NCBI GenBank assembly: GCA_032718475.1
Contig: JAUCBJ010008213.1
Coordinates: 1-41,139, forward strand
Length of the DNA: 41,139 nucleotides
DNA from: Nemertoderma westbladi
Taxonomy: Eukaryota > Animalia > Xenacoelomorpha
Direction of reading: 5' to 3'
The notes below the pieces were generated by a model, which saw only the letters and a list, made by a program, of their open reading frames with translations, had not been told where the DNA came from and searched no databases. The position numbers were made by a program, and so were the translations under genes. Shown here one piece after another: positions 5,444 to 37,949 of the stretch. Positions within the stretch are counted from its first letter, which is position 1, and every line of letters starts with the position of its first letter.

Positions 5444-5547
5444 CTTGTCCGGACGAACTATTTAACGAGATTTCCCAGAATTCAGTCGTCTCCATAATTA
5501 AGACCCTCACAGAGATTAACATTGCATTTCTTCCATACGAATCGCAA
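5444..5547 (+). CDS. STXBP1: Munc18/STXBP1 coding exon 4
   Basis: CAG acceptor; (A)[34 protein letters not shown]; GTAAGT donor. Confidence 0.95.
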
Positions 5548-5782: not shown

Positions 5783-5931
5783 ATATTTTCTTTGGATACA
5801 AAGGAGATGTTTCAGTCGTTCTACAGTCCCCACAAGATCAACCAACGTAGTGTCCATATCGAACGCATGGCTGAACAGATAGCCACAGTGTGTGCCACCT
5901 TGGGAGAATATCCTGCGATCAGATACAGAGC
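5783..5931 (+). CDS. STXBP1: Munc18/STXBP1 coding exon 5 (gene continues beyond, or is truncated)
   Basis: TAG acceptor; [49 protein letters not shown]; GTAAGT donor. All five exons splice in frame (569 nt). Confidence 0.95.
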
Positions 5932-10407: not shown

Positions 10408-10439
10408 TTCAGCATCGATTGAGTCTAACCACGCTGGGT

Positions 10440-11489
10440 TCCTTCACTATTAGGGGAAAGTCCAGACAGCCGTCTCCTCAACTCTTCGTCTCCTAGGAAT
10501 CGCTGATAGTCGGACAGATAAATGTCTATGGCGTCTCTCGTTCGTGGTCTCTCTGCGGTCTCTTCGCCTTCCACTTGAGAAAGGGTGGCATCGGTTGGTT
10601 CTTCATAGGTTAGTCTCTCAGACAGCTGGGATTTCCACTGGTCCGTTTCTTGTACTTTGAGACCTACCCGCTGGAACCAAGTTTTGACAGCAACCTGCAG
10701 CGACGTGTCCTGTCTTCTTTTGGAAGTTTCCTCAAAGGCTGATAGGATTAGTCGAATGCGTAGGGTTCTTTCGCGTACTTGATATAGCAGTTCTTCCTGC
10801 TCTTAAGGTCCTTGGGGTTGTCGAAACAGTTGTTCTTCTAATCGCTCTAAGGAGCCGAAGAATCCCGGCACATATCCTGCTGCCGACCTCTTCCAAACAG
10901 CTGGATCCATCGTATCTTTAGCCACTCCCATCCTGTGTATATCTTCCCAAGTAGCTTCGGACAAATCTAACGGGAGTCCGGGTCCGGGAAAGTTCCATTG
11001 TGACTCGACAATAGACATCAATTCTTCCCTGGCGTATCCCGCATAATTATCTTGGGTCGCTCGCTTACTTCTCGCCCAATCGGCTTGATGTTCCTCCACC
11101 GCAATCAATATAGTAGTTAGCACTGCGGCAGGAAGGGTGAGAAGGGGGTCCGAGTAGGCTTTAGCCGCCATCTGCAATCCGCGTTCGGGAGTCAGCTCTA
11201 CAGTATCCGAACTACTGGAGCTATCTGATCGCTGGGAACAAGTTTCTTGACTAGGATGTTGCTGCTGTTGGACAGCTGCTTCCTGGTTCCGCTTGACTTG
11301 GGCCCGAGTTCCGATGATAGACCTAGGGTGTTGGATTAGCTTAGGGTCTGATACTACTACTGGAGGGATGGCCTTTCTTTCAGTAGGAGGTGAGCTGAAC
11401 TCCTTTCTTAATCGCTCCACACTCCTATCTGTGTCACAGATGGTTGTATCGATTAGACTGTCTGACAGGTTTTGCTGGGTGTCAGACAT
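10440..11489 (-). pseudogene. Probable disrupted N-terminal part of the same BEL/Pao polyprotein
   Basis: The 228-aa ORF from ATG 11489 stops at 10803, but the same frame stays open afterwards (EQEELLYQVRERTLRIRLIL...RRRLSGLSP) to ~10430. A frameshift near 10445 joins it to ..WLDSIDAEMLAANQ. Confidence 0.6.
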
Positions 11490-12824
11490 GTTTAGCTATA
11501 CAGTTGAATGCTTACTGCTATAGTTACAGTTAAAGCAAGTCTAGTAATTCAGTATGACCGTGGGCCTAGTACTGGTAATTTATTGCAGTATATTAGAATA
11601 CCGGTATGCACTTATAATATATATAAGTATTGTAAACTAGTTTTGTCACAGAGTACCGGTATATAAATTTAGCACAAATATATATAAATATATAATAGGC
11701 CTATCGTGAATACCGGTATACAGCTTACACTTATAGTATATATAAGTATAATTATGGACTAGAATTAATTACCGAATACCGGTATGATTTCAGCTCAAAT
11801 TTATAGAAATAAATATAATAAGCCTATGGTAAATACCGGTATGTCAATTATTTTAGAATAATTGAATTTCTGAATATTTTAGGGTTACTTGGTTACTTTA
11901 ACTTACTTTATTACCGTTATTTAAGCAGTAGTCCAACTGATATTGAGACCTAGTTGTTGTATGGCAGGCCTACTATTTATAAATCGTTTGAGTTGATTTA
12001 TAATATATATATACCCGTTTAAAAGGGTTTTGTCAATATTTGAAATAAATGTTATTATTTCTGGGGGAGTCACTACACAGAAGCTGTGCGCTCTCAGTGA
12101 AGTGCTACCTATGGGACACTAAAACAGATAATTCTAATTTACCTAAGTTACTTAATACTACAAATTACTTACGATACGGGTGAGATTAAATCTCTAATTA
12201 AACACAACAAAAATATTACGTACGAAATTTTAGGGTAATTTTACAGGAAGTCTACAAACCAGCCTAACAAAGGGTTAGATTTCTGGTTATTACAACGGAC
12301 AGGGTACTACGGTATTTGAAAATAATAAGTAGTAGTAAATATATTGCACTGTCCAGATAGGAAAATACCACCGCCTGACGACCTATAGCCGTATCGCTAT
12401 AGGTACTACGTTATGTATCACGGAGTGTTCCTACCTGGAAGTTAATTACCGCGGACTACCAGATCCAACGTGCCTATTAACCACTTTACAACACAAATAT
12501 ACTGCCTACACTAATTACCCTCGGAAAGCACTGTACACTAAACCCTAAATTAGGTACAAGTACTGGTACAACAAATAATCAGTAGTTAAATATACTTGAA
12601 CAGTTAAAAGAACCACGGCATCTGCTGGAGTGACCGAAGCACAAAGTCACCAGTCTTTTCCTACGCCAAGCAGCCCGTGTAGTACCGGGGTTAATTTAAC
12701 TATAACGGTATGTGTAACAAGCACAATTACTGTAGGAATAAACTTGGGGACATGAATGTTGCGAATAATTGCATAAACTCTGAATAATAAATATTACGCT
12801 ACCCGTACAGAATACTCAAACAAA

Positions 12825-17399: not shown

Positions 17400-18502
17400 A
17401 AATATAAAAATAACCCACAGATATTAGTTATGTATTATTATGTAGCCAGATCCAAAAAATACCTAGATAATTATATTTTGTGCATTTCTTAGTTTTGTTA
17501 CTTCGAAACTATATCGAGCTAGCTTGATTAATTTGTCCTTGTTATTTCTAGTCATAATTGGTTGGTTGGGGTATTGGTGAAGAATCTTTCTATGTATTTA
17601 TTCCTAAGATCTCTAAAATATAAGCACTCAAGTAAAAAGTGGTATTCGTCCTCCACGCACCCTTTGCTACAAAGTTGGTATAAACGTTGATCGCGGGGAA
17701 TATTGTACCATCATCGGCCAATTTCAATTAATAAATTGTGTGAGCTACACCTAAAGCGACTTAAAACCCTACGAAGAGCAATGTGTTTATCGAAGTGATC
17801 AAAGTAAATTTCAAGATCGAAAGTATATTTACTATACAAATTCCATTTCGGTGAAAGATTAATAGATCCCCACCAAGATCGAATATATTGATCTTTAATC
17901 CTAGTTTGTACCTCGTTCAAAAATATACGTTCATTGCTAAACATACTCTTCTTCCCAAACATTAGAGAAACCTAAAGAGTCTAATAGTTGTTTCGTCCAT
18001 AATGCCCAGATTGAACAATTTGTTGAGTTAATAAGGTCTGATTGTCTTAGACAGTCATACAAGACTTTAGAAGTCTGTAGGTCGGAAGTTTAAGTATTTT
18101 TAACCAGTACTTCTTAATGATAATCAATTTTCGAACACAGTGGAAGAGTACCTGTTTCCCCAAAAACCATGAAGTTGGGCGGTGAAGTCTTGACAACAAG
18201 AAAGTATTTTAAGAATTTCAGATTTACTCGTTCTACTGACTATGCCTTGTGAATCCCCATATCACGCTTCCATAAAGTAGTATAGGTTAATTATAGAGTT
18301 GTAATGATATAAAACGATATCAAATGAAATGTGTGGTAAAGAGATAAAAAAATTTAATAGGGAAAAATAAGCTTTCTCGCCTTTGGATTGTGCTACAGAA
18401 AATTTCCCACTACTTGTAAAATAATCCCTAAATAGTTGTACTGGTTTACTATTTCAACTGGAGTACCATTAAAAATCCACATTAAATTACGAGGAATTTG
18501 AC
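17400..18502 (-). mobile_element. 3' part of a degenerate APE-RT LINE (RT thumb to C-terminal Cys/His motif)
   Basis: ..IPRNLMWIFNGTPVEIVNQYNYLG.., LSRFRCSSHNLLIEIGR, CVEDEYHFLLEC. Continuous with 25682 onward once the transposon is removed. Left boundary approximate. Confidence 0.85.
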
Positions 18503-18564
18503 TATGGCATACTTTTAGTATTTTTATTCGACATTTTATTTCCCCTTGATATTCTTCTGAATTT

Positions 18565-20010
18565 AGTCGCGAGATAAATGATTAAACTCGCGAGAAAATA
18601 ATTAATCTCGCGAGATAAATGATTAAACACGCGAGAAAATAATTAATCTCGCGAGATAAATGATTAAACACGCGAGAAAATAATTAATCTCGCGAGATAA
18701 ATGATTAAACTCGCGAGAAAATAATTAATCTCGCGAGATAAATGATTAAACTCGCGAGAAAATAATTAATCTCGCGAGATAAATGATTAAACTCGCGAGA
18801 AAATAATTAATCTCGCGAGATAAATGATTAAACTCGCGAGAAAATAATTAATCTCGCGAGATAAATGATTAAACTCGCGAGAAAATAATTAATCTCGCGA
18901 GATAAATGATTAAACTCGCGAGAAAATAATTAATCTCGCGAGATAAATGATTAAACTCGCGAGATAAATGATTAATCTCGCGAGAAAATAATTAATCTCG
19001 CGAGATAAATGATTAAACTCGCGAGAAAATAATTAATCTCGCGAGATAAATGATTAAACACGCGAGAAAATAATTAATCTCGCGAGATAAATGATTCAAC
19101 TCGCGAGAAAATAATTAATCTCGCGAGATAAATGATTAAACTCGCGAGAAAATAATTAATCTCGCGAGATAATTGATTAAACTCGCGAGAAAATAATTAA
19201 TCTCGCGAGATAAATGATTAAACTCGCGAGAAAATAATTAATCTCGCGAGAAAATAATTAATCTCGCGAGATAAATGATTAAACTCGCGAGAAAATAATT
19301 AATCTCGCGAGATAAATGATTAAACTCGCGAGAAAATAATTAATCTCGCGAGATAAATGATTAAACTCGCGAGAAAATAATTAATCTCGCGAGATAAATG
19401 ATTAAACTCGCGAGAAAATAATTAATCTCGCGAGATAAATGATTAAACTCGCGAGAAAATAATTAATCTCGCGAGATAAATGATTAAACTCGCGAGAAAA
19501 TAATTAATCTCGCGAGATAAATGATTAAACTCGCGAGATAGATGATTAATCTCGCGAGAAAATAATTAATCTCGCGAGATAAATGATTAAACTCGCGAGA
19601 AAATAATTAATTTCGCGAGATAAATGATTAAACACGCGAGAAAATAATTAATCGCGCGAGATAAATGATTCAACTCGCGAGAAAATAATTAATCTCGCGA
19701 GATAAATGATTAAACTCGCGAGAAAATAATTAATCTCGCGAGATAAATGATTAAACTCGCGAGAAAATAATTAATCTCACGAGAAAATAATTAATCTCGC
19801 GAGATAAATGATTAAACTCGCGAGAAAATAATTAAACTCGCGAGAAAATAATTAATCTCGCGAGAAAATAATTAATCTCGCGAGATAAATGATTAAACTC
19901 GCGAGAAAATAATTAATCTCGCGAGATAAATGATTAAACTCGCGAGAAAATAATTAATCTCGCGAGATAAATGATTAAACTCGCGAGAAAAATACACATC
20001 TCGCGAAAAA
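18565..20010 (+). repeat. Left subterminal array: 41-bp dimer (21+20 bp), roughly 70 CTCGCGAG monomers
   Basis: [CTCGCGAGATAAATGATTAAA CTCGCGAGAAAATAATTAAT]n; count estimated as length/20.5. Confidence 0.97.
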
Positions 20011-20110
20011 AATCGCGATTGGCTGTTAATTGGGACAGTAGGAAACGGCCATCCAATAGCAGCAGAGGAAATACCCTTATAGGTGCAATAGGGATATATA
20101 TAATAGGTAT
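20011..20110 (+). promoter_or_regulatory. Putative promoter of transposon ORF2: two opposed CCAAT boxes plus TATA-like sequence
   Basis: ATTGG 20018-20022, CATCCAAT 20050-20057, TATATATAA ~20095; layout mirrored at the other end of the element. Confidence 0.45.
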
Positions 20111-20794
20111 TAAATAGGCCTTCTTTCTATATCATTCATTTCAGCATACCGTAACATTATCTCTGCCTCCTGTCTGTATTAAGGGGCGTCGTGTCGAGTT
20201 TAGGGTAGCATGTTTGTTTATACAAGCCAGAGTTGCAATATTGTATTTGTACTTTGGTACAATAGCCGCTCGGCGCGGCGGTCCCTATTCTGGACTGAAT
20301 TTTTGTTTAGCAGTAGTCAGATGCATGATTTCTACTTAATGTGATTCTTTTAAATTCAATAAAAATTAATAATTCAACAAACCATTAAATTGATGTACTA
20401 TATTAAGTGTTACAGTTTATAATTAGCGCCCATACGCCCATGTGAAGAATACCAGGATTTCACTTTTCGGACGACCTTTTATTGGAATTTTATATTAAGA
20501 TTTTTAATTTTTTTTAAATTTATCTTTAATAAATGTTTTATATGCGTTTATTTCTGTCTTATAACCTGTACATACATATACTATTTCGTTTATTGTTTTG
20601 GTTAAATTCAGCCCTTCTGTAACCTGTGTTTTTGGTCAAAACCTGGTATTCTTTACATGGGGGGTAACCGCAAAGTGAAATATAACGGCAGAAAGTCTGG
20701 TATTCTTCACATGGGCCATTATTAGTATTATGCTGTTGATACGTTGGCTGAATTGGGCCAAAATTAATTATATTATGAATGGGAGAATCTTTTA

Positions 20795-21030
20795 GGCTCG
20801 TTAAGCGGTGTGGTCTCGTTACGGCTAATGTCTCGTTACGGCTAATTTTATGAGAGATTAGCCGTAACGCGACTTTCAAAGTCGCGGTACGGCTACTCTA
20901 AAAGTCGCGTTGCGGCTAATTGTCGCGTTACGGCTAATTGTCGCGTTACAGCTAAATTTTTGAGAGATTAGCCGTAACGCGACTTTCCGTAATGCGACAT
21001 TAGCCGTACTGCCACTGCGCCCGTTAAGCC
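20795..21030. repeat. Small foldback/MITE-like module of GTTACGGCTAAT repeats in both orientations
   Basis: CGTTACGGCTAAT-like units forward at ~20817, 20835 and 20885-20955; ATTAGCCGTAACGCGAC reverse at ~20857 and 20967, with ATTAGCCGTA at ~20999. Confidence 0.7.
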
Positions 21031-21223
21031 AAGGAATAATGCCTGTTCACCACCACATGTAAGTCACCATTTCATTCTAATAATTAATTTTGGAATTCAG
21101 CCACCGTATGTAGAAAGCCTACATACTTTACAATATAAAACATTTATTAGGAAAATATTATTGACAGATTGCATTTGTAGCTTGAAAAAATATTTGACAA
21201 TTTCCCGCCGTCAATGCAGAACT

Positions 21224-22492
21224 ATGATCTGCCAGAATTGCAGTAAAACTCTTAGTGCTGAGGATAAGTTTTGTTCACATTGTGGCACCAGTTGCGATAT
21301 TGCTTCAGTTCCTAGTTCAAATAGGCGTGAGTTAATAGCTGAACTAAATCGTCAATTTGCACCATATGCATCGGTTCCAACTGGGTCAGTAAGCCGACGA
21401 CGAATAACTCCATCTCGTGCACGTCTTTCTTCTCCCCGTGGAAGGCCAGCAGCAACGACTTTCAGTAAGGCAATGGTTGTAGTACGTGGGAAGCATTATA
21501 AAGATGAATTAATTACTATCAAACATTCTAACATAGTGAAGCATTGCATGCTCGATTTCTGTAGCATAGATACAGCTGAGGAAATTAGAAACAAAATCAT
21601 ATCTGTGCTTGAAACTCACCCGAGTTGCATTACTGAGTTTACTTATGTAAAGGCCCCCAACAGGGTAGTTACTCCCATATGTGTTAGCGAGAATTTCAAG
21701 TTTAATGGTGATGCCATTTCTTGTCTGTTTCCAGCGAAAAGAGCAATTTATGTTCAACTTAAAGAAGTTGATACTCTTGAAGAGGAAGATAGTCCATTTT
21801 CTACTTTGGATTTACCGTCTTTTATGAGCCCCAATGTGACTGGTGGAAATATTCAATCGGGCAATGTCATTGAACAAAGCACCGAAAGCTCAGGTATACA
21901 TGTAGGAATGCTGCAGGCTTGGGATGGGAGAGACATTCTTGAAGCTAGCCCGGATGATGTAATTGATTCCGATGTCGAGGTTATAGAAGAAGATTCTGTT
22001 GTTAAACAATATGATGTCAAGAAAATGACAAAATTTACTACTACAGAATTAAAGGAGATTGGTAAAGTCCAGATTCTTTATGATTACGATACATTATCCC
22101 CGAACTATGTAGAACCAAGCCAGTTACAAGACATATCAATACGCCGTACATCTGCTTTACAGGATTTAATACGGAAGATTGAAAAGATAGATATAACTCA
22201 GGGGATTATGGTTCACTACTACGATGAGTCTGGATGTGACAATGGAGGTCTCAGGCGAGATATGTTTAGTACGGTTATTGGAGCCTTGCTGAACTCGTCA
22301 ATGTTCCTAACAATTGATGATTACATTGTGCCTGCATTAGTAGATGTTGTTAAGGTGTCGAATGGGAGTTTTAAAGCAGTCGGTAAAATTATTGGTAGCA
22401 TTCTTCTACACGGCGAACAGTTGCTTAGCATCCTGCATCCTATTGTGAGCAGGTATATTGTGTTCGACGCAAATCCCATCTTGGCGAATTAA
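21224..22492 (+). CDS. Transposon ORF2: N-terminal zinc ribbon, central globular domain, acidic linker, N-terminal part of a HECT E3-ligase-like domain (no C-lobe)
   Basis: First ATG at 21224: MICQNC..DKFCSHCG. ISIRRTSALQD..IMVHYYDESGCDNGGLRRDMFS..FKAVGKIIGSILLHG resembles the HECT N-lobe signature (V.F.GE.G.D.GG..RE.F). Stop at 22490-22492. Confidence 0.75.
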   Translation: MICQNCSKTLSAEDKFCSHCGTSCDIASVPSSNRRELIAELNRQFAPYASVPTGSVSRRRITPSRARLSSPRGRPAATTFSKAMVVVRGKHYKDELITIKHSNIVKHCMLDFCSIDTAEEIRNKIISVLETHPSCITEFTYVKAPNRVVTPICVSENFKFNGDAISCLFPAKRAIYVQLKEVDTLEEEDSPFSTLDLPSFMSPNVTGGNIQSGNVIEQSTESSGIHVGMLQAWDGRDILEASPDDVIDSDVEVIEEDSVVKQYDVKKMTKFTTTELKEIGKVQILYDYDTLSPNYVEPSQLQDISIRRTSALQDLIRKIEKIDITQGIMVHYYDESGCDNGGLRRDMFSTVIGALLNSSMFLTIDDYIVPALVDVVKVSNGSFKAVGKIIGSILLHGEQLLSILHPIVSRYIVFDANPILAN

Positions 22493-22675
22493 TATCCCGC
22501 CTCAATGTTTAATTCTCAATTTAGGGAAAGGAGCAGGTTACAGTGGCACGTTATTTTAACCAAAACAATAAACTAAACACAATAGAACAGGTTACAGTGT
22601 CATTTTTGAGAGTAATCAGCTGTTATTTGCGTCGAATTTCCCCTGGAGAGGGATAAATTTTTATTGCGTCCAGTT

Positions 22676-22702
22676 CCCCCCCCCCCCCCCCCCCCCCCCC
22701 CC
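22676..22702. repeat. C27 homopolymer between the convergent ORFs
   Basis: Direct read. Confidence 0.95.
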
Positions 22703-22774
22703 TATCTGAACTTTTCTTAGGTTCTCGCATTATTATAAAGAAAATGGAAAGAAAATAAGGAGAACAATTATTGT

Positions 22775-24413
22775 TCAGTTAGAATCAAGAATTGTATTAT
22801 TAACCACAAATTCCTTGCAATATAGGTAGCAGTCAAGGCCATTGTTATGGTTATTACCATTGTTGTCAAACAGTTCTGCAATTTCGCCCAGTAAACGTTG
22901 TTCAGCTTCTACAGATAGGGGAATATTGATGGGTCACACCAACAACAGATTGTTGTTCGTCCACTACAGGACCCTCCCAGTCTATTCCATAATTACTTAC
23001 TTCACCTGGCTCGTCCTCTATGGAGGTATCTTGAAGTCGACTATTTACGAAAATCTTTCGCGGAGTCCAGTAGTGTTCAGTGCGCAAACCGTGATTATTC
23101 CACCCAATAACGAATTCATTCAGTGCTGTATTGATGCGCTGCTTGAATGCCGTATGTAAACAATATATGTCATGAACATTTGAGGGGTCTAAATATTGAT
23201 TATCTTCAAGCCAGTGAAACAGTTTATAGTACACAATAATAACCGTTCGAAAAACATCCCTCCATAAACGTTCGATTCGTTGGTTGTGTGTACTTCTACC
23301 AGCTATGAAACTTCCCCGGTTTGTACCTCGACGATTTATCATATACTCTGCAACACTTCTGTTTTCACCTCCTTTGTCTCCCCTAACTCTAGAGGGCAAA
23401 CCATATTTATCAACAGCCTCTAGAAACAGAGGCAACACTGTCGATGCACAATTGTTACCAGACATTTGTAAGTAAGTAATTAGTCTAGAATGTCCATCAA
23501 TTCCGCCATGCAGGACTAAATTCCATCGTATGAGACTATGGTGTCCATCTATATGCCAAAGTGAGTTGGCCGCCTTTACGCTGTACTTTCGACGAAAGAC
23601 AAGCGCTCCCCATCTAGATGCGGATGAAATTGGATCTACCTCCTTAAGGATTCTATGAACAGCATTTAGTCCAGCAAATACATTTCTGCTACGAAGTATC
23701 GAGTTAACAAATCTACACCCAGCATAAGGGTATTGTTGGTGAATTTCTCCAATTATTCGTTTTAAATCTTCTTCATTAGTGTCGTGATAACGACGACGCA
23801 CACCCAGTTCATATTCTCGCACTCGATCCATTATTGTCGATCTGCTTACACCATACATTTTTGAAATCTGGGTCCATCTAAATCCACTTTCATGTAAGAA
23901 CGTGAGGATTTCCTTTGATATATCAAATTTCGGTCTACCACATCTTGACTCTAGATGAGTATCGATCGAGTTAATAGTTGGTACTTGTACAGCGGCAGTA
24001 GCTAAGGTTGTGCAACACGGACTAACTGGTATGGGAGTAGCTATTACTGTCTCTGAAAGTTTATTCAGATAAGTTAGATAATTCTCTCCTGCAGTATTAT
24101 TGTTAGGCGCATTTAGCCCATTTATAATGGTTAAACTATGTGAACAGTTCTCCAGTCTCGCTAATAAATGTTCCTTTAAATCTTGATGCAAGCGCATAGA
24201 ACTCGAATCAGTACTGTTCTCGATAAAGCGTTCGCATTCTTTAATTACGTCTTCCAAATGGTTCACAAAGAATTCGACGGGATCGTTTCCACCATCCATA
24301 ACAGTTAACTGTATTAGTAGGCCTAATAGTTCTGAATTAGTGTTTCTATAGACCTCACATGAAACAGCAGTAGCAGTGGCCAGTAAAATATACAACAAGT
24401 GATACGAATACAT
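22775..24413 (-). CDS. DDE transposase (rve integrase-core, IS3/IS481-like) with HTH; probable frameshift near 22935 in the C-terminus
   Basis: [25 protein letters not shown] (HTH); catalytic [25 protein letters not shown]. The called ORF ends at 22902, but a shifted frame continues [28 protein letters not shown] to 22775. Alternative start at ATG 24299. Confidence 0.9.
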
Positions 24414-24469
24414 GCTTTTCTTACGATAAAATATAACATAATAGATTCAATTATGCTGAAATGGCGTTG

Positions 24470-24560
24470 TAATCGCTTTTAAATATAGCCCTTACTTAAA
24501 TAACTATTGTGATTGGATGTTTGTTTCGTGTTGTCATAGAGAGCGCCAATCACGATTGTT
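24470..24560 (-). promoter_or_regulatory. Putative transposase promoter: two opposed CCAAT boxes plus TATA-like sequence
   Basis: Minus strand ATTGG 24550-24546, CATCCAAT 24519-24512, TATATTTAAAAG ~24487-24476, 60-70 bp upstream of the ORF. Confidence 0.55.
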
Positions 24561-25619
24561 CTCGTGAGATTATTTATTTATCTCGCGAGATTAATTATTT
24601 TCTCGCGAGTTTAATCATTTATCTCACGAGATTAATCATTTATCTCGCGAGATTAATTATTTTCTCGCGAGTTTAATCATTTATCTCGCGAGATTAATTA
24701 TTTTCTCGCGAGTTTAATCATTTATCTCGCGAGATTAATTATTTTCTCGCGAGTTTAATCATTTATCTCTCGAGATTAATTATTTTCTCGCGAGTTTAAT
24801 CATTTATCTCGCGAGTTTAATCATTTATCTCGCGAGATTAATCATTTATCTCGCGAGTTTAATCATTTATCTCGCGAGATTAATTATTTTCTCGCGAGTT
24901 TAATCATTTATCTCGCGAGATTAATCATTTATCTCGCGAGATTAATTATTTTCTCGTGAGATTAATTATTTTCTCGCGAGTTTAATCATTTATCTCGCGA
25001 GATTAATTATTTTCTCGCGAGTTTAATCATTTATCTCGCGAGATTAATTATTTTCTCGCGAGTTTAATCATTTATCTCTCGAGATTAATTATTTTCTCGC
25101 GAGTTTAATCATTTATCTCGCGAGTTTAATCATTTATCTCGCGAGATTAATTATTTTCTCGCGAGTTTAATCATTTATCTCGCGAGATTAATTATTTTCT
25201 CGCGAGTTTAATCATTTATCTCGCGAGATTAATTATTTTCTCGCGAGTTTAATCATTTATCTCTCGAGATTAATTATTTTCTCGCGAGTTTAATCATTTA
25301 TCTCGCGAGTTTAATCATTTATCTCGCGAGATTAATTATTTTCTCGCGAGTTTAATCATTTATCTCGCGAGATTAATTATTTTCTCGCGAGTTTAATCAT
25401 TTATCTCGCGAGATTAATTATTTTCTCGCGAGTTTAATCATTTATCTCGCGAGATTAATTATTTTCTCGCGAGTTTAATCATTTATCTCGCGAGATTAAT
25501 TATTTTCTCGCGAGTTTAATCATTTATCTCGCGAGATTAATTATTTTCTCGCGAGTTTAATCATTTATCTCGCGAGATTAATTATTTTCTCGCGTGTTTA
25601 ATCATTTATCTCGCGACTA
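24560..25619 (-). repeat. Right subterminal array, inverted relative to the left, roughly 50 monomers
   Basis: [CTCGCGAGATTAATTATTTT CTCGCGAGTTTAATCATTTAT]n is the reverse complement of the left unit. Confidence 0.97.
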
Positions 25620-25681
25620 AATTCAGAAGAATATCAAGGGGGAAATAAAATGTCGAATAAAAATACTAAAAGTATGCCATA

Positions 25682-28600
25682 TTTGACCACCTTTTCTAAA
25701 AACAACTATTTTAGACTTATATTATCTAGGTTAACATTTAGACCCCAAAATTCACAATATGATTCTAGAACGCTGATTGAACTTTGTAAACGTTTGGGAA
25801 TTCTAAAATAAGGGGTTCTAAAATAACAATGTCATCAGCGTATAGTAGAAGAAACAGACGCACGTGATAAATAGTGATACCCTGTATCCCACTCCCACTA
25901 TTACGTAATTCGGACTCCAGGTCATTAACAATCAAGTTGAACAATAGCGGAGACAGACAGTCTCCTTGTCTGACTCCTATCAGACATTCGAAAGAACCAG
26001 ACAGTTTTCCAGCACTACGGCCGCACCATTTAATGCTACTGTATATAATACTTTTTATCAATTTAACTATTTTTCCTGAAAACCCGAGACCTGACAGTTT
26101 CATCCACAAAGCCGTCTAACAAAGGCATGATCTATATCTGATTTAATCACAAATATTTGATATGCGGTAACTGTAAACTGAATCTGAAACCAGCCTGACT
26201 TTCAATAAGCACACCAAAACAATCCGTCCAAAATGTTAATCTGTTATAAACACCAAATAATTTTTAAAACATACAACAATTTTTAATTTATAAAACATCA
26301 ATTCGATGTCAGAAGTTTGCCAATAGTGCTTAACATCGTGACTCCCCGGTACTTCCCTGGGTCTAATCTCGAGCCTTTATTTTTATATAATGGGGAAATA
26401 ATACCTACTGACCAGGCTGAAGGAAAACAACCGGTAAATAGCACTGCATTGAATAATAATGTGATAATCGGTACCAACTGGTTTTATCCCTCAATGAAAA
26501 ATTCTGAAATAAGACCATCCTCATCTGGGGCCTTAGTAGTATAGGTTTGCTCCTCTCCTATACTACTAGCCTTACCTCGTTTCATATTACCAATTGCTTC
26601 CGATATTTCATCTTCCACAAGTGGCTGTGAGACATGAATCGAAAAAGAGTTTACTTTCGGCTAAATCTATTCCTGTGTCTCCTGATGGTACAAAACCGAT
26701 GTATTCAAATTTATTCCCACTATTGGATTTACTAAATTTTTTAAAATATTTTTCAAACTCCGAGAGTTACAGGAGAGAGGTGGTTTCACTTTTCTTCTGT
26801 AGATCATTTAATTTTCGCCAGTATCTTTTAGAGTTAGTAGTTTTATAATAATTTCTTAAGCAATTAACTTGATCCTCCAAAAACGGATATCTAGTCCACC
26901 GCTGCGCCGCTTTATACTCTTTACGTTTTGTTTGTACAAGTACAGTAGATTCTACCGTTTGCCTAATGTTGTTCGACTTTCGAGCACTATTAAAAGATAA
27001 TTTCGCTTTCCTGCATTCATCATTAAACCCAATTGCACCAGGTAAAATATTTGCATCACCCTGACAATTAGAGCACGAAAAGTTATTTTCTGCGACATCT
27101 ATGATTGTTTTACATAAAATATCAGATGCGCGTGTTACAGTATTTCCAGAAATATCACCCTCACAAAGTAGGTTGGTAATTTAATTAAATCTTAATTGCA
27201 CCGAATTTGATTCTAGAGATTGCCTAAAAGCATCGGCATGGTTAGGATGCCAAACGTATCGTTTATTAATGGGACTTCATCATCATAGGCAATGTAATCA
27301 AGTAGATTAGCTGTTCTAGAATTCAAATCATCAACTAATAAAATATCAGCATTGCCTATATAGGAAGCAATTCCTTTCTCAATTATATCAAACATTGACG
27401 CTGTGTCTCCACTATAACTAGTCGAAGACTCCGGTGGGATGTAAACACAACATATAAATACATCATTAGGTAAACCTAGAGAACTACTAATTTTAATCCA
27501 ACATAAGTCCTCAGTATGGGTTTGTTGTTTTGGCACAGATAAAAATAATTTGTGAGAAAATCACGGTAATAAATCATCACAGCCCCACTATACCGCTTAG
27601 CATTTGGGTGTTTGTATTTCCTATAAATATTTATAGGTTCCACAAATCCTTCGATTTCAATATTTATCATTGAGTTTGGACCTAGAAAGGTCTAATTACA
27701 TATAAAAAAAATCATATTTCTGGATGAGAGAGTGAATATCTGGTCTTTCCACATTTAAGTGTCCAACTCGCAGAGTCTTGATCTGTGACTATGGGATTTA
27801 ACCCACTCCTTGTTGGAATCAGTCAGTTGGTGAGGGTACATGTCCAGGCGGGTAATGGGTCCCCTGAGTATTCTTGACCTTCCACTCAGCAGACCCACCC
27901 GCGGTTTCTCGTTGAAATACTATCATGTTGTTATAATTAGTTTGATCACCTATTCCACCATTTTGACCTCGGCCACTACCCCTAATTCCTGTTCCGATTG
28001 TAGTTGTACCTTAAAACCCGCTGTTATATACCCAAGTGGTACTCTGATGATCAGCCTTGTAGATAGAGCTGCTGTTTGTCGGTATAGTTTCAGCTCCTGC
28101 ATATTGAATACCATTTCTATTTGTTCAAATGCTCGATTCTTTCCTCTGATATTGACTGGGGTCGTAGGAATTCGTTGATAAGTTCTGTAGTTAAGTCCAT
28201 ATTTGTTATGAAGGGTCGGGGAGGGAAGTCGATCTTTATTTATGGGTTCACAGTTGTGATAATTAAAGACAAAGCGATGTAGTCCTCTTCTCCCTGTTGA
28301 CACAATATTCCACACAGATGCTTGCTTTGATTTGGTGTATTTCTCGCGCGGGGGAATTTCCTCGTAAGGATCGTCTTCCCATCATCCAGATCCATTCCTA
28401 AGTATGATTTAAACATAATCCTCTTCGTTTGTCACCTTAGGTACTGTTGCATCTCTTGTTGGCTGGACTAGAGCAGAACCGCAATCGCGAGATAAATCAT
28501 TTAGCTCAGAGTTAGCATCAATACCGATTCCGTTTGGTCCAAATATATATTCTCCATTTCCCCCTTCTGGTTAAAGGAGGAGGAGGAGTACCTGTTCTTG

Positions 28601-29600
28601 TGATCATTGTTAAATCTACTATCGTCATAGGTTGAGTTATGGTTACTGGAACCATACCCAGAACTTGGTGATCCCAGACTCGGTCCAAAGCCTGGGGGAT
28701 ATCTCCTCAAGTAGTGACCAGCATCATCAACTTCCTGTTGATGTTGAGTTGGAACCCATATATTAAGCTGATGTAGATCCTTATCCAGAGTAATATCCAA
28801 TTCGTTACTGATATCCCAACCTGAGACAGGAACATTATATATCTTCAAAATCGATCCTCGTATTTCTGTATGTAGCCCGATCAAAGTCGCCTCTAGCTAG
28901 TCTAAATAGGGAATTTCTTTGCACAGTCAATTCAGCTAGAAAGTTGTCCAAGATCTTATATTACGTTCCAATGAGCCTCTCTTTCCTATCGAGAATATAG
29001 AACTTGTCAGAGATGCAGAGGAATTCAACTCTCACAGGTCTAGTTTTGCTCCTTTTGAATTTACCTTGCCAGGAAACTCTTTCAATCTGAAGATCCCCAC
29101 TACTTCCAAGGGATGTATTGAATAAGTCATACTCAGCATCCTCCAAGCTTCTGTATCGTGATTCGTTGAGGTTTAAAATTATAATGTTGTGTCGAGATGA
29201 TTGACGTTGTTGTTGGACCTGTCGCATCAGCAGAAGTTCCACCTTCTCTTCAATCCGATTGCACCTATCTTCCAGTCTCTCATTTTCTCGTTTGAGTCCA
29301 GCCAGACGATCGCCATGATCATCTCTCAAAGTTTTGAGACCCACCACAATGATTGGCATCAACATAATATTGTCGAGGTGTTCTTGGGTGAAAGTACCAG
29401 CAGTACTGTTGATGGCACTCCGTTCACTACAACTGCTAACACGCGTTCGCTTCTTGTTGTTCCGACTGGTTGACCCATCGATCGCGCCGTTATTATTTGT
29501 TTCATCATCTTCCGCCATTCCATTCCATACAAAAAGATCTGTCTTGTTTGGTTCATCCTTGTTTGAGACAGCTACTCCTGCGGCCCCTTGTCGTTTTCAG
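25682..29600 (-). mobile_element. 5' part of the same degenerate LINE (ORF1, APE endonuclease, RT); RTEX/Crack-like, clade uncertain
   Basis: RT: GVRQGDCLSPLLFNL..LLYADDIV (25765-26109). APE: RYSGAVMIYYR, ICCVYIPPESS, LVDDLNSRT (27213-27670). ORF1: coiled coil plus RRM-like RHNIIILNLNE..KTRPVRVEF (28961-29518). Many stops and frameshifts. Confidence 0.85.
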
Positions 29601-30161
29601 ATGGACCAGCTTGCTTTCTACCTGATTGGTTAGACTGTTAGTCTGCCATAACTGAGGAGCAAAGATTCGAAGATGTAGCCAGGAATAATCAGATAATGTC
29701 CAGTATGTCTGAGTCTGTATTATTAACCATGTAGGCATATCAGGCGGTCTGTTAATGTTGTGAAGAGTAAGAATTTTTTTTTATTAATAATAATGAGAAG
29801 CATCTGATATTTTATGGTAATTATGAGGATCCCATACAGGTTTGTAAAATAAAATATTGATGTGCGGTAATAAATGAGAAAATGGATTTACAGACAGTAA
29901 GTAAATATGAATGACTGACACAGAGATCGAATAATCATTGTATGTATATTACTCTTGATTGGAATGAGTCCATCATCCTAGGGGAGAATTTCTCATGATA
30001 ATTATGTTTAATTTATTAACGACTTTTTAATGAAACTTTGCAAGCTGCATTGCAGCATGCTGATTGTGGATTATATGGAAGCAGCACAATTAAACCGGCA
30101 TAGCAATCTCTATGCAGCTGCAATGCGGCATGCCTATTATAAATATATAGATTTAAGAAAC

Positions 30162-30648
30162 TTACGCGTCATTATCACAAGCGTAATCGCAACATTGTCC
30201 AAAAACGCAATCAAACCGATCTGCATAACATCCCTCTACATATAATTGTCGTGGACATTCAGATCGAAATGTGTCACGGTCATAAGAGCATGCATATCCA
30301 TAAGAAGTTGAATCTGTCCTAGGATCTGGAATAACATCCTTGTAAGTGCTTATACTTTCATCATAGTCACAACATTTTTCACAGTACCAACACCATTCTT
30401 CAACTGTACTAAAGGTTATTTGTGATGTCCCTTTTAATTTTTTCTTATAACTAGAACAGTTTGGGAATTTATCTGTTAGAATACTTGGGTCTGGGCAATT
30501 TATTGGGCAGGAGCAGCAACCTTGTCGATATTCTATGGGTTTCGATGCAGAGATAGTTGGAGTAAATATCATCACGAACAGTATGGCTTTTCTGACGATA
30601 TAACGTGTCATTGTGGCATCATTGTAATTTAACATCACTGGCATTGTT
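30162..30648 (-). CDS. Putative secreted cysteine-rich protein (16 Cys), main exon; family unrecognised
   Basis: From ATG 30611: signal-peptide-like MTRYIVRKAILFVMIFTPTISA, then a ~127-aa mature region with 16 Cys. Polypyrimidine/TAG acceptor at 30649; AATAAA at 30017-30012. Confidence 0.7.
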
Positions 30649-30725
30649 CTATGGGAAAACAAAAATAATGTAATAGGAACAAAAATAGGCTTAATATTAA
30701 AAAAAAATTAATTTAATTTATCTAC

Positions 30726-30812
30726 CTCGTTAATGAAAAAGCGAGTATCATTAGTTATGCAATACAGTTCTAGGTGGACGACTTGTTTTCCAAAAGCCTG
30801 AAATGTTTTATA
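30726..30812 (-). promoter_or_regulatory. Putative TATA box and first exon of the cysteine-rich gene
   Basis: TATAAAA at ~30811-30805. GAG|GTAGAT donor at 30725 gives a 77-bp intron. ATG at 30751 splices in frame (MILAFSLTRTMPV..). Confidence 0.5.
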
Positions 30813-31044
30813 ATATGTACACCCTCAGGCAGGGTTAAAGGAGATACAGTGTAAGTATACAATGACACAAACAGGTAAATAAAGTTTTATAAAACAATTA
30901 TGAAGGTTAATACAGCTTAGTAATACTACTACAATAATCGGCCTGCCGCATTGAAGCTGCACATTGAGATGCTATGGTGACTCAACTAAAATATTTCTGC
31001 TTTGCAAAAATATTGTCTTTTATTATCTCTTATCTCTTATTGTA

Positions 31045-31088
31045 TTGATGACTGTCTTGCTTGTGCGTACAAGCAAGACAGTCATCAA
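31045..31088. repeat. Perfect 20-bp-stem hairpin with 4-nt loop
   Basis: TTGATGACTGTCTTGCTTGT-GCGT-ACAAGCAAGACAGTCATCAA. Confidence 0.9.
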
Positions 31089-33794
31089 CAAGCAGAAATA
31101 TGATCGGAGCAAGTTTGTGGTGCTGCTTCCCAGTGGTTACAGTCACTATATCGTGCGGTTCTAGTTCCATTTCACTCTTCCTTTGGGATTTCTCTCTAGT
31201 GACATTTGCTGGCTTGGCCTCTTGATAATAATGTATTCTGAAGCGGGGTGAGATTTCCCGATACGCAGACTGCTGTCAACTGATTGCATGCAATAACGTC
31301 GAGGTCAGTTGCATTTTACATTACTACTGAGGTAAAAAATTTTACTCAACGTCCTTGAATAATCAAATAAATAATTAATTGAAATATAATATTTAATCTA
31401 ACAATATCATTACAAAAATCTGCCATACATTGTAATCCTGATGTAAGCAGGTCATATTCATACAATGACCCTGTATGACGGAAAATTTAATAAATTAAGA
31501 TTAAAATAAAGTAATCCAACTTAGAAAAAGTAGTTTTCGCACTTCCGGTACCCGTTGTTACGATTTCCAATCGCTACTCTATTCTGGGGTTGGGAAAAAC
31601 TAGTTTCCCTCGATGATTAAAAATTATTTCATTTTGCACATCTTCTACAACATCGACAATGGTATACAACTATAGTGTCAATCGAATTCAATCCATCTCC
31701 ATGATTTCTCATCTCTTGTATAATCCAGTCCCTGGCCTTAAGTCATACGTCTTACGCCCTTACGTCATTTTATGACGTCATAAAAATGCAAATAATCATC
31801 TGTGTTCTCATCATTTTTCCAAATCAAGACACAAACAAAAAAACAACAAAAATGATATTATTATTTAGCTTTTGATACCAGAATTAACCAAGTATAACGG
31901 TTTTACGATGAATCCAATTAACCATAAACCGATCGAAGCGAGCTATAAAGAAAAGAGGGCACAGTAAAATAGTGATATTGGTATGAACACTGAGTTAATT
32001 TATTATTAAATGTTATATAATGTTAATTAAATGCTATGAACTAAATGTTGTAATTATGGAATATTCTCGCACTCAATTTCAAAATTGCATTTGCAAAATC
32101 ATGTGCAAGAAACGATATCTTTCCGGCATCTGCATCATCGCTTAGTATTGCACTTCTTGCTGAAACAAGTAATCGTCGCCCACAGGATAGAAAAGAAGTA
32201 CAGTTAACATTATTACATGAAATAATTGTGTCTTTTAACAATGTAATAAAAACAGCTATATATGGCGTATAACGCAAAAATACCCTGGTAATCTTTACCA
32301 CTTTCACCACAATCTATACAGTAAATTAGTATAAAATATGTATAATACTGTAGTTGCCGTGGAAACTGACGTAGTAAATACTCAAATCACCACAAATTCT
32401 TGAGATTGTGAACAGCTCACGGACACACAAAACAAATGGCTATAAAAAACTTATGCTCAGGGAGCAGAAAGTCTACCCAAGGATTTTTACACTCATATAT
32501 GTATGTCCTACTGGGATTCGGTGAGAAATCCCGTCCACCCCAAAATTCCTACCCGGTCTAAGACTGGAGTAGTAAGGGATATCTCGAATGGACTTCGGAT
32601 TCGAATGGTATCAACCTTAAGAAGAGAACTTAAAGGGGGGGGGGGGGGAGGGGGGGTAGCACTGCCCTATTTTGGAAATTGTAAAAACAATTTTAATCCT
32701 ATCATGTGCGGAATTTAATAGAGATTTCAATCCTCAAGCAGTTTTCTAATGTATTTTCTCAAACTCACTGGAGCTGAGCAACAGATATGGACCCTTGCAT
32801 CAGGGGCAGCAGATGACTGCGATGGCCATACTGCCTTCACAGACGTACTGAGGAAGTGCCGAGAGGCTCACAATGCGTAGAATGAGTACCGGTACTACAG
32901 TACAGCGGCCAAGAATGCAGTTAAGGCTGCATCTAGGTCCCCGAACAGGCATTACTCTGTTAATCTACAGGAGCTAATAAACCAACAGGTTGATGCCATC
33001 AATGATGCTGACGACAGCAGGCAATCATCCCAGGCATGGAAATCGATCAACTTACTTACTGGGCGGAAAAGCCAACCAACCACCACGGTTAAGGCAGAAT
33101 CACCAGATGATCGTGCCAGTAAAGTAGATAGTGTCCCCCATTGAGGTTTTTAATATGCCTAAATATTTGGTGCAAATTTGGTGCAAGCAATTATGAGATA
33201 AACAAAATGTTAAAAAAAATTTAAATTAAATTCAAACAATTAAATAGAATAAATGGCCTGCAGAGGAAGCAAATACACGTAACTTTTGAATGGCCAATTA
33301 TCAGCTATTTCCCAATCAAATTCAAATATGTTTACATATTTGTAATCCTTGCACTGCCAGCTTTCTATTGCCACCAACAAATTACTATAAAATTTAAGGA
33401 TAACTGCTGGAACGAACTGAATGACTGACTGTGGAAGAACGACTGGTGCAATATCGCTGGAGACTCTTTTTTCAATCCCTTGTAGCTAAACATTGAAAGC
33501 GAAAATATAAATTCTGGCTCACCCACTAAGGAGCAGGTAGGTGAAACTAACTCCGTTTCAAATTTCATGCAATTTATTACTTGCATTATATGGGATTCCT
33601 GAGGAAATTTTTGCGGGAATCGTCGATGGTTCGACGATATTTGCGTCTACCATTGATGGTGACACAAATTAATTCGAAGTATTATGGGGAGTTCTCCAGG
33701 GTGGCCTACTTGTACCATTATTATTCATAATTGTGGTTGTCTATGTTCTACGCATATCCTTAGACAACCATAATGATGATGGTAACACCCCCTA

Positions 33795-34856
33795 TGTTGC
33801 GATCCTAGATGGTTCGACAACATTTGTGTCTACTGTTGATGGTGACACAGAACCATTTGAAGTGTTATGGGGCATCCTTCAGGGAGACACACTTGCACCA
33901 TTCTTGTTCATAATTGTGGTTGACTATGTTCTACGCATGTCCTTAGATCATCATAATGATGATGGGGTGATGATAACTCCACCTACTGGCTCCAGAAGTC
34001 GAGGAAATCCTGCCAAGTACCTAACTGATCTAGACTTTGCTGATGACTTAGGAGTACTCTCAGAATCAATAGAGGGAGCCCAACGGCTCCTCTGCTCATT
34101 AGAACATGCTGCTTCTAGTGTTGGTCTTTTTATTAACTCCAGAAAGACCAAAATTTTTACAGTTAACTTTGAAAGTTCTCAGCAAGTCTCTGATCGGATG
34201 AGCATAAGCTCAAAGGATGGTATGCTTGAGCATGTGGGCGACTTCTGTTACCTGGGATCATGGATCCGGAAGTCAGGTGAGGACCTTCGAATACGTAAGG
34301 GAAAGGCATGGGCAGCCTTGAATAGGCTTTCCAGGATTTGGAAGTCACCGAGAATTAATCGGAAACTTAAGGTCCGATTATTTAGAGCAGCAGTAGTTCC
34401 AGTACTCCTCTATGGGAGCCCATGCTGGGCTCTAACTGCTGAGGACACCAAATCTCTGGATGGCACATTCACAAGAATGCTACGCCGGGTTCATTGTGTC
34501 AAATACAATGCACACATCTCCAACCAGACACTATATAACATTGGAGGTGTCTCATTGCTTCCCCCAAGCTTGACACTATAATAAAATCGCCTCCACTTTG
34601 CAGGAAATTGCTTTCGCCGTGAGGATCAGCCAGTGCATAATCTTGTACTTTGGCATCCTCATAGAGTGAATAAGCATGGTGGACAGCCCATGACTTTCTT
34701 GAGACGCATCTTAAAGGACACTGGCCTTGAAGATGCGGATGATCAAGCAATTGTCATGGGTGATAGGGAGTTGTGGCGGCGCAATTTTGTCGACAAGCCG
34801 GCACAGCATTCTTAAAAATGCAGCTGCAATGCAGCATGCCGATACTAGTAGTAGTA
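33795..34856 (+). mobile_element. Younger 5'-truncated RTE-clade LINE with (TAG)n tail and 13-bp TSD
   Basis: GILQGDTLAPFLF..DLDFADDL..FCYLGS..VLLYG; tail TAGTAGTAGTA; TSD GTAACACCCCCTA at 33782-33794 and 34857-34869; one in-frame stop at 34579-34581. Confidence 0.9.
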
Positions 34857-35009
34857 GTAACACCCCCTACCGGGTCAGCTCCAGAAGTCGAGGAAATCCA
34901 GCCAAGTACCTAACTGATCTAAACTTTGCTGATGACGTAGGATAACTCTCAGAATTAGGGAACCCAATGGTTCAGCAGCTCATTAGAAAAAAGGCAGCTT
35001 CTCGTGATG

Positions 35010-36142
35010 TGTAAAAGCTTTTGCGGACATAACAAGTCATTTTTACGCAATGCGCAGAATACTCTAAAATAGCCCTAAATTTATCCAACTACGCGACGGG
35101 AAGGAATTAGAACCAAGATGACGAAATCTGTCAGCTGATTCTTTGTGGACGTGGAGGTTATTTGTTCTGCATTATTCAGCCAATCAGAGCAATTTTACCT
35201 TTATGTCTAACAGAAACCTATGGAACTCGCGCAATGCATTACGGTCTTTGTTTACTATTTTCTGAGCATCAGAGCCAGCTCGGAATTTTCTGTGCTTCTG
35301 TGTGGAAGTTTCAGACTTTGGCCTAGGAACATCAGATGGCCTTGATTATAAGAACGTAAATCTATTAACTTAACTGACTGCATTTCATACTTGTCATACT
35401 TATTTGACGCACCACTGAACATTTCATAACTGCATAAGTAACACATACTGACATTTCACCGCATTATTTTACTTATGTTATTAATTGTTGTTATATTAAT
35501 GGATATTGCTGTTATATTTGGAGAATACCGATAAATAATCATAAACCCCTCAATCTTCTTGATTACTGAGGTAAGAGGAACAGGTTTACCGGTAGCAACT
35601 GCGACTTAAATTAAAGTGGTTTTGTGTGAATTAAATGCTATTTCATAATCCCTACGTGTGTCAGTTGCGATCCTCCTTATATATGATCAAATTCAGTGAC
35701 GGTCGGCAGATCAGTGTGCAGTAGTGTGAAGTAGTGTGAAGTCGTGTGAAGCAGTGTGAAGGTTAATAAAGCATCTCCTAAAGAATGCGCTATTTACGAA
35801 ACCCTGTGGCCATCTAGTTGTGATTAGTATAAGTCATAACTCTGTTTTTATACTTAAAGCGCCACGCCCTAAAGGAACTGTTAATATTTCCCCGAAAGTA
35901 AATATATTTGTCAGAGATTATATATTAACGATCAATCGAATAATACAGTAGGTCTACACTGCAATCACTCTCAAGGAATCCGAATCCAGTCTCCCACACC
36001 GTGGGTCATACGCCGCGCACGGACTGGCTTCGGCTTCAGTCTTCAGTACACTAGGTAATTGATATAGGCTAAAGTCGATTTATAAACAAGAGGACAACTA
36101 AAATTGGCAGGTTAAACTGCTAAAGGTCTAAAAGCGCGAACA
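35010..36142 (+). mobile_element. Solo LTR (1133 bp) related to the BEL/Pao LTR
   Basis: TGT...ACA termini; 5-bp TSD TGATG at 35005-35009 and 36143-36147; flanks rejoin as RTE sequence. Confidence 0.92.
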
Positions 36143-37949
36143 TGATGATCGTTTTGTTAACTCCAATAAGACAACAATTTTGAGAGATATTTTCGACAGT
36201 CCTCAGGAAATGTCTCATCGTATGAGCATAAGCCTGAAGATGGCGTGCTTGAGCATGTGGATGACTTCTGCAACATGGGATCATGGATTCGGAAGTTAGG
36301 TGAAAGCCTTCAAAATACATAAAGACGATGCATGTGCAGCTTTGAATGGGCTGTCTATCCACTGTCCAGTATTTATAATTCACATATAATATAGATATTG
36401 GGAAACTTAAGGTCCGATCATTTAGAGCAGCAGTAGTTCCAGTACTCCTCTAAGGCAGTCCATGCTGGGCTCCAACTGCCGAGGACACAAACTCTCTGGA
36501 AGGCACATTCCAAGAATGCTACGTCGGGTTCACAGTGTCAAAGACAATGAACACATCTCCAACCAGACACTATATAAAATTGTAGGTGTATCCTTGGTCC
36601 CCCCAAGCTTGACACATGAACAAAGCCGCCTCTGCATCGCAGTACATTTCTTTCGCCGTGAGTGCATAGAAATGGTCGGCAGCACATAAGTTCTTTGAGG
36701 CGCCTCTTAAAGGGCACTGGCCTTGAAGATGCGGATAATCTCGAGGAAGTCAAGATGCGTTTTGTGGCGGCGTTTTTAGCCGGCATAGCCATCCCATGCA
36801 GCAGCCTGTCGATTATAGATAGATAGAAATAACTATTGCTAAACGTTCTAGAAAAATGGAAACCTAATATGACTAAATTAAAAACTTTGAATGAATTCAG
36901 AAAGCAACGAGACACGTGAGTATAATGAGATTCCCTCGCATGCGGCACAACTACATGTAGTAATAGATGCACCGTACCTACCGTATGGCGTGTATCATTG
37001 CGCTAAACTAGCTCATCAACCTATAAGAGTTTCACCAGCAGAAACCTATTAACGGTACCCTAAAACGGCTGTCATTCAATTCATTGAGGGGAGCATTCTT
37101 AATACTGCAATAAATTACACAATAAATAATAGATTGAAATAAAAACTAATTATACGATATTTTCATGAGAACCAAGAATAATGTGCGTGAGTCAATGTAC
37201 CTGTTTTGCGAAGGATGAATGATTCAGCACCAACATAAATTATTATTAACACATATATCTCTAAGTGTACAGCACAAAAAGTAATTATTATTTAAATTTT
37301 ATTTTTTTTATCTGTTGAAGCAAGCAAGAAGTAAATACTTGGCAGGAATGTAAAAACAACACAAACTAAAAAAATGGCAACCTTTACAATATTAGATGCA
37401 TGCTGAAATCATTGATCAGTTGAGATCGGTAGTTCCAGAGGGAGAATAAACATGCACTATGAAACTAGGTGTAGTGAATTACTTACTGGGAGTACTACTG
37501 ACTACCTCACTAACTACTACTAACTAGTAACACCCTACTGGGAAGCAGCACCGCAAACAAGCGCCAATCACGTTTCCGATTATTGGTGATTGCCTTGGTG
37601 TAATTGCGGTAGTGGGGGATGTAATACAATTCAATATTTTATCTTGTTATTGCCCCCTTTTTGTTCCACGAAAAGGTCCGCAGAGGCACCAACTTATACA
37701 TTTTCATTTTTGTCTGACTATCTTAGTTCTGTGCATGTCGACAACACTAGTGGGGTGATTGAGCCCCAAATAACAGCTGATTACAATAACAATGTGACTC
37801 TATTGATTCTCGCTTATTATTATGGTTAGAATATCAAAAATAAAACAAAAAAGCCAAATGAATACGAAATTGTAGCATAATTATTGCTGCCACAGTAAGC
37901 TGTTCCTTTCCCTTGATTGATAAATAAACATTATTAATTCACCGAGAAG

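Follow-up and report, generated by a model that had tools for sequence, protein, structure and literature searches.

A predicted secreted 16-cysteine protein gene among mobile elements in Nemertoderma westbladi

The minus strand of a 41,139-nucleotide stretch of Nemertoderma westbladi DNA (assembly GCA_032718475.1, contig JAUCBJ010008213.1, positions 1 to 41,139; referred to below as the window) carries an intact coding exon for a protein with 16 cysteines, and its open frame is not a product of chance. The original prediction of a secreted, disulfide-rich orphan is supported: the protein is probably real and is predicted to be secreted. Judged by its sequence, it would be an acidic, tyrosine-rich product of about 127 residues, for which we tentatively favour, at somewhat under an even chance, an extracellular binding or matrix role over that of an antimicrobial that lyses membranes or of a toxin released by processing. 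Orphan genes of such kind are common, and established views are not challenged by this one; its 16-cysteine framework matches no family searched. Secreted orphans of small size and high cysteine content regularly yield new toxins, adhesives, matrix proteins and stable scaffolds, and they are often overlooked by gene predictors where they lie among transposons in the intron of another gene.

The gene model comprises two exons. The first, 26 nt long from the first ATG (30726..30751, minus strand), has a weak start context (taactaATG) and may belong to the 5' untranslated region. It is followed by a predicted 77-nt GT-AG intron (GTAGATAA...TTTCCCATAG; 30649..30725, minus strand; phase 2 from ATG 30751) and by a stop-free second exon of 161 codons (30162..30648, minus strand), which carries the signal peptide and all 16 cysteines. 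Spliced from ATG 30751, the frame encodes 170 amino acids. The short first exon and the 77-bp intron are present as had been described, with a strong acceptor at 30649 (top 0.13% of 4,746 AG sites) and, at 30725, a donor of no more than moderate rank (top 3.9% of 4,558 GT sites), both by splice-site scores of our own. The two flanking motifs that had been put forward in favour of the gene, a TATA-like box (TATAAAA, 30806..30812, minus strand, 55-61 nt upstream of ATG 30751) and an AATAAA as candidate poly(A) signal (30012..30017, minus strand, 145 nt past the stop), do exist, but they are individually weak as support, given chance expectations of about 0.10 per 100 nt for TATAAA and 0.24-0.33 per 200 nt for AATAAA. 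Third codon positions have a GC content of 0.28, as low as the background, versus 0.47 in the exons of the Sec1/Munc18 gene described below, so that codon use bears no sign of long selection.

The signal-peptide-like start of the earlier model can be refined. A signal-like segment is present, but from ATG 30751 the hydrophobic stretch comes only after 31-39 residues, which is late for a signal peptide, and a better start at ATG 30611 (context gccacaATG) had been missed. The leader that begins there has a basic n-region, a hydrophobic core with a peak 9-residue hydropathy of 2.8, and small residues at -3/-1; a signal peptide of 21-23 residues is predicted from it (30546..30611, minus strand). 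It passes our simple n/h/c rule, as do 2 of 50 Met-started non-coding control frames. The signal peptide most likely starts at ATG 30611, and exon 1 may therefore be non-coding or, alternatively, provide an unusual N-terminal extension. A second hydrophobic segment was not found in the mature part, where the best 15-residue mean is 0.6.

It is very improbable that this frame is merely an accidental opening in AT-rich intron DNA. Such an origin would be compatible with the lack of any homologue in our searches and with promoter and poly(A) motifs that are common by chance, and stop-free frames of 149 or more codons arise 0.38 times per simulated window, 467 of 1,500 windows simulated with an order-4 Markov model having at least one. 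However, none of the 1,500 gave 16 cysteines in such a frame, the maximum being 13 per 128 codons, nor did any of 60 windows in a smaller simulation reach 16, and this does not yet count the signal peptide or the rank of the acceptor. Cysteine accounts for 3.5% of the sense codons in the frames of the window, and the probability of finding at least 16 in 128 codons is 1.2e-5. The five alternative frames across exon 2 contain 6-18 stops each; those on the plus strand contain 6-9, so the 16-cysteine frame is not the shadow of a plus-strand gene.

In the predicted 170 residues the cysteines occupy positions 53, 54, 56, 60, 73, 95, 98, 101, 102, 129, 140, 149, 156, 161, 162 and 166, which confirms the proposed framework as stated, with the spacing CC-1-C-3-C-12-C-21-C-2-C-2-CC-26-C-10-C-8-C-6-C-4-CC-3-C and three CC motifs that lie 48 and 60 residues apart. 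The predicted mature part has 127-128 residues, a mass of 14.7 kDa, a pI of 4.5 and a charge of about -7 (-7.3). It contains 12.5% Cys, 8.6% Tyr (11 residues) and 16.4% Asp plus Glu (14 Asp), neither His nor Met, one N-glycosylation sequon, and no KR, RR or RxxR propeptide site, its basic pairs being KK only. An N-terminal module with nine cysteines (30354..30545, minus strand) is near-neutral (pI 7.7) and bears the sequon, and a C-terminal module with seven (30165..30299, minus strand) lies within an acidic half of pI 4.05. Both halves end in CCDY, as had been noticed, and they also have PDP in common, but the internal duplication at which this seemed to hint finds no support: with two types of shuffling and six scoring schemes, local alignment of the halves gave p values of 0.16-0.33, and the corresponding values were 0.065 for the shared 4-mer (CCDY), 0.11 for 3-mers and 0.41 for alignment of the DNA. 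The halves may still descend from an old duplication, of which the sequence itself bears no trace.

The earlier remark that the framework could not be assigned to a known family holds for the searches run, as neither a family nor a fold was found. Pfam, NCBIfam and the PDB sequences returned nothing meaningful; at E values up to 10, the C-terminal module alone and the mature protein matched no Pfam family, with the filters of HMMER dropping most matches above about 0.1, and the ESM Atlas gave no usable match for the whole protein or the C-terminal module. A word search of 5.8 billion proteins, over lengths of 88-282 aa only, produced two candidates, none at E ≤0.01. When contigs were scanned with the protein, pattern matches numbered 174 for metagenomes, 6 for viruses and 45 for prokaryotes, and none of them was confirmed; a scan of viral contigs for the cysteine spacing gave at least 255 matches at no fewer than 121 loci, at least 152 of them with stops, and none among the matches listed was similar beyond the cysteines; a scan with an N-terminal motif gave two loci with an 11-residue match only. 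No paralogue was found within the window, in which the gene is present as one copy. AlphaFold models built without an alignment reached pLDDT values of 40.8 and 53.2, and the fold searches with them came back empty, which at that confidence is uninformative.

Two controls define how these blanks are to be read. An exon of the Sec1 gene likewise yielded two candidates in the word search, probably because the cut-off of 1e-12 is too strict for that database; given that this exon matches STXBP1 at an E value of 6.5e-17, its poor yield shows only that short queries retrieve little. The transposase encoded in the window, by contrast with these short queries, gave 1,862 matches, the named ones being from bivalves, a hydrozoan and a tardigrade. 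The best of them is 50% identical and none exceeds 50% among the best 120 of the 1,862, so the host lineage looks unsampled in a database that otherwise does hold invertebrate proteins. Consequently, a lineage-specific gene is indistinguishable here from a gene of a lineage that has not been sampled, and the blank searches carry limited weight.

The stop codon of the frame overlaps a GTAAGT (30160..30165, minus strand), a possible phase-2 splice donor: the frame ends GAC GC/G TAA GT, in which GC/GTAAGT (the slash marking the potential splice point) is a consensus donor context. No other donor-like site of exon 2 has a score above 1; this one outscores three of the five Sec1 donors as well as the gene's own first donor (30725), and its eight bases match the end of Sec1 exon 5 at 5931 (GCGTAAGT); GTAAGT itself occurs at three of the five Sec1 donors. 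Among the 4,431 stop triplets of the window, 89 (2.0%) stand in an equally good donor context and 31 (0.7%) in GTAAGT. From the sequence, it is quite conceivable, though somewhat less likely than not, that the real transcript splices at this site, giving either a short tail or a much longer protein. The stop being possibly a donor, the argument from the even number of cysteines, although 16 were indeed counted, is weakened, and so is that from the downstream AATAAA. The stronger version, in which exon 2 is an internal exon of 483 nt and the stop is spliced out in favour of a substantial C-terminal part, such as further modules, a stalk or a membrane anchor (or was so before a LINE inserted 400 nt downstream), is rather unlikely. 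It would explain the split into nine and seven cysteines and the absence of the last cysteine of the WAP and ICK patterns, and a truncated RTE tail 22 nt past the stop would be better tolerated in an intron. Against it, besides the even count and the AATAAA, stands the lack of a cysteine-rich next exon: from 5950 to 30100, 85 minus-strand acceptors score at least 4, and of the phase-2 frames of 12 or more codons that 40 of them open, not one contains over four cysteines. The site scores come from matrices of our own. The top-scoring downstream acceptor, at 17352, opens a hydrophobic frame of 43 codons (17352-17222, minus strand) where the LINE has its 3' end, which is rich in T; since such an end yields such peptides by composition, this 43-mer is probably compositional.

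It is improbable that the gene is the cargo of a transposon or else a fragment of a gene that was copied recently and has since died, an origin to which its position between decayed LINE and RTE fragments, its background-like third-position GC and an apparent inverted repeat on its flanks could point. The repeat, 84% identical over 44 nt, pairs a segment 22 nt past the stop (30099..30140, plus strand) with one upstream of the TATA box (30934..30976, minus strand). Both align with the 3' tails of two RTE copies (34795-34860 and about 36775-36815, in the 3' ends at 34760-34870 and 36745-36835), and a weaker, partial third copy lies at 30039-30064 (plus strand). Terminal inverted repeats of a DNA transposon are ruled out, because the alignment to RTE tails and the third partial copy identify the flanking repeats as independent, truncated retro-insertions. 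The flanks therefore lend no support to the cargo that the original prediction had named as a competing explanation. Moreover, the Pfam search detected no TE domain, and neither stops nor shifts interrupt the frame, whereas the neighbouring LINE is in pieces. That the frame is intact amid decayed transposon frames, as had been claimed, is true of the adjacent LINE and RTE, but mobile frames of 499, 514 and 1,217 aa are open elsewhere in the window. A scan of metagenomes with the RTE tail gave 0 matches.

The window, which has a GC content of about 30-50%, is animal-like DNA and, outside the Sec1 exons, consists for the most part of mobile DNA (BEL/Pao-like, a DNA transposon, a LINE and RTE-like elements), the labels BEL, CR1 and RTE being presumed from the look of the sequences. 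A BEL/Pao-like retroelement (6790-11495, minus strand) contains an open frame of 1,217 aa with DUF1759 and traces of a protease and a zinc knuckle; upstream of this frame lie frames of 125 and 230 aa with no convincing Pfam match. The LINE starts about 400 nt past the stop of the 16-cysteine gene, on the same strand, and its frames are broken into lengths of 115-211 aa. Between its ORF1-like and reverse-transcriptase parts, frames of 143 and 131 aa (27950-28896, minus strand) without a Pfam match are perhaps a decayed ORF1 extension. Inserted within the LINE is a DNA transposon (18412-25650) with long inverted ends formed by 41-bp tandem arrays of 34.8 and 25.7 copies; it has an open, integrase-type transposase frame (22902-24446, minus strand; Pfam rva_4, E 1.6e-78) and a convergent frame (20993-22492, plus strand) that contains a zinc ribbon and whose end resembles a HECT ligase (E 3e-4 to pub2). 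By its sequence, this element looks like IS3EU/GingerRoot (PMC10045372); a literature search found no paper on IS3EU combined with HECT. Two RTE-like LINE fragments (33619-34955 and 36120-36830, plus strand) have internal duplications and a short 3' tail, which is dispersed as pieces of 25-50 nt. A near-perfect DNA hairpin (31028-31103, z -7.75), with a flank related to 37537-37597, is probably a small repeat element. Some 0.7-1 kb upstream of the gene are located what we take to be an ETS-like site (CACTTCCGG, 31541-31550) and a palindrome with a presumed CRE core (TTTTATGACGTCATAAAA, 31768-31785), both of which may be part of a repeat.

The presumed host is a Sec1/Munc18 (STXBP1-like) gene on the plus strand, whose exons 1-5 lie at 3620-3647, 4610-4741, 5200-5355, 5444-5547 and 5783-5931. 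With lengths of 28, 132, 156, 104 and 149 nt, they splice into a stop-free frame of 189 aa; four of the five match Pfam Sec1, in order along the model, and exon 3 matches the solved STXBP1 structure (E 6.5e-17). Relative to what we take to be the human exon structure, exons 2 and 3 and exons 4 and 5 are fused here. Because the five exons splice without a stop, the intron that begins after 5931 is intron 5, and the number fits the proposed nesting in STXBP1 intron 5, but host exons were found on one side only. For a later exon (exon 6 onwards), nothing convincing was detected up to 41139 with nine motifs of the later exons, which means either an intron of more than 35 kb or a disrupted host gene. 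Nesting in intron 5 is plausible, and the 16-cysteine gene is likely no more than a passenger that the intron tolerates. Nested structures involve nearly 10% of Drosophila genes; of the nested genes, 71% lie on the opposite strand, and as a class they show faster evolution and narrow expression (PMC3814207). With opposite-strand nesting being frequent there, the arrangement is an ordinary one. The resemblance lies in a small antisense gene within what is presumed to be an intron of a conserved gene of neuronal/secretory function, whereas the animal lineage is another one and Sec1 exon 6 is outside the window, which makes the nesting here presumed. Among the texts accessible to a literature search, no relevant paper on a gene nested in an STXBP1 intron was found.

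As to function, the protein would be translated from ATG 30611, the signal peptide would be cleaved after residue 21-23, and oxidative folding could join the 16 cysteines into up to eight disulfides. With nine cysteines in one module and seven in the other, a bridge would be required from module to module or to a partner. The acidic, Tyr/Asp-rich C-terminal module may then bind a protein, mineral or matrix surface, possibly in mucus, egg coat, tube, shell or body wall, and a short additional exon might take the place of the last few residues. The sequence itself shows the open frame, the cysteine framework, the composition and the strong acceptor; composition, however, is weak evidence, and no homologue, family or fold backs any function. 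From the range proposed originally (toxin, antimicrobial, pheromone or matrix protein), a matrix or binding protein agrees best with the composition, because a pI of 4.5, the richness in Tyr and the lack of a KR/RR site would suit such a protein; cationic antimicrobials and processed toxins fit less well. Acidic toxins and pheromones exist. So do anionic antimicrobial peptides (PMC9680087). A complete gene for defence or signalling (a venom toxin, an anionic antimicrobial, a protease inhibitor or a pheromone) acting through a WAP/ICK-like C-terminal module is accordingly a recognisable alternative, to which we give a low probability. The signal peptide and small disulfide-rich body suit it, as does the fit of the C-terminal module to the first five ICK and the first seven WAP cysteines of the general patterns, and spider ICK toxin genes have TE-rich flanks and can have two modules per exon (PMC13172734). 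Yet the last cysteine of both frameworks is missing, neither module has a Pfam match at E values up to 10, there is no KR/RR propeptide site, the net charge is -7, and the window holds no paralogue, versus 42 ICK paralogues in one spider (PMC13172734). A bolder and rather unlikely reading is a new disulfide scaffold, the founder of an undescribed family of secreted proteins from an animal lineage that has hardly been sampled, in which unlike modules of nine and seven cysteines would be cross-bridged, the C-terminal one being an eroded WAP or knottin whose missing cysteine is supplied by the N-terminal one.

To the extent that sequence can tell, the 16-cysteine protein is a member of none of WAP, crustin, ICK and galaxin. 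Our comparisons used general cysteine patterns for WAP, ICK, Ly6, EGF, Kazal, Kunitz and defensin, and no such pattern of Ly6/three-finger, EGF, Kazal, Kunitz or CS-alpha-beta defensin was matched, nor any Pfam family. ICK/knottin peptides have six cysteines with the spacing C-C-CC-C-C, and the C-x6-C-x4-CC-x3-C of the C-terminal module fits the first five of the six, while the full pattern fails. The spacing of this module also fits the first seven of the eight WAP cysteines, and the full eight-cysteine pattern fails as well. As to the knotted topology, in which ICK peptides share three disulfides (bioRxiv 10.1101/2021.07.28.453581), the single-sequence model reached a pLDDT of 53 and gave no fold match.

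WAP domains have eight conserved cysteines, four disulfides and 40-50 aa (PMC11408880), and crustins a 12-cysteine signature, with four in a cysteine-rich region and eight in the WAP domain (PMC9680087). The protein resembles them in that a cysteine-rich region is followed by a C-terminal module, about 40 aa long, which shows C-C-C-C-CC-C and has a CxxD..DC core (PMC11408880, PMC9680087). Its module differs from WAP by having seven cysteines instead of eight, a 6/4 spacing around the fourth cysteine versus the usual 5/5, and no Pfam WAP match; from crustins, the whole differs by its 9 + 7 cysteines and its acidity (PMC9680087). With ICK and bivalent spider toxins it has in common C-x6-C-x4-CC-x3-C, two modules in one exon and TE-rich surroundings (PMC13172734), while the sixth ICK cysteine and a propeptide site are absent. 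Bivalent spider ICK toxins consist of homologous modules and have separate signal, pro and mature exons, unlike the present gene, in which the modules are not detectable duplicates and there is no such separation of exons (PMC13172734). Galaxins are proteins of about 300-660 aa, mostly made up of tandem repeats of 29-41 aa and with a dibasic site, in contrast to the 127 aa found here, with no significant repeat, no KR/RR site and no Pfam match (PMC2726143, PMC5604590). Nevertheless, Amgalaxin, a secreted matrix protein of corals, has 12.4% Cys overall, a mature pI of 4.52 and di-Cys motifs (PMC2726143), and the 16-cysteine protein is like the galaxins in its predicted signal peptide, its di-Cys motifs, its content of about 12.5% Cys and its mature pI of about 4.5, a likeness that extends to the low conservation of sequence outside the cysteines (PMC2726143, PMC5604590).
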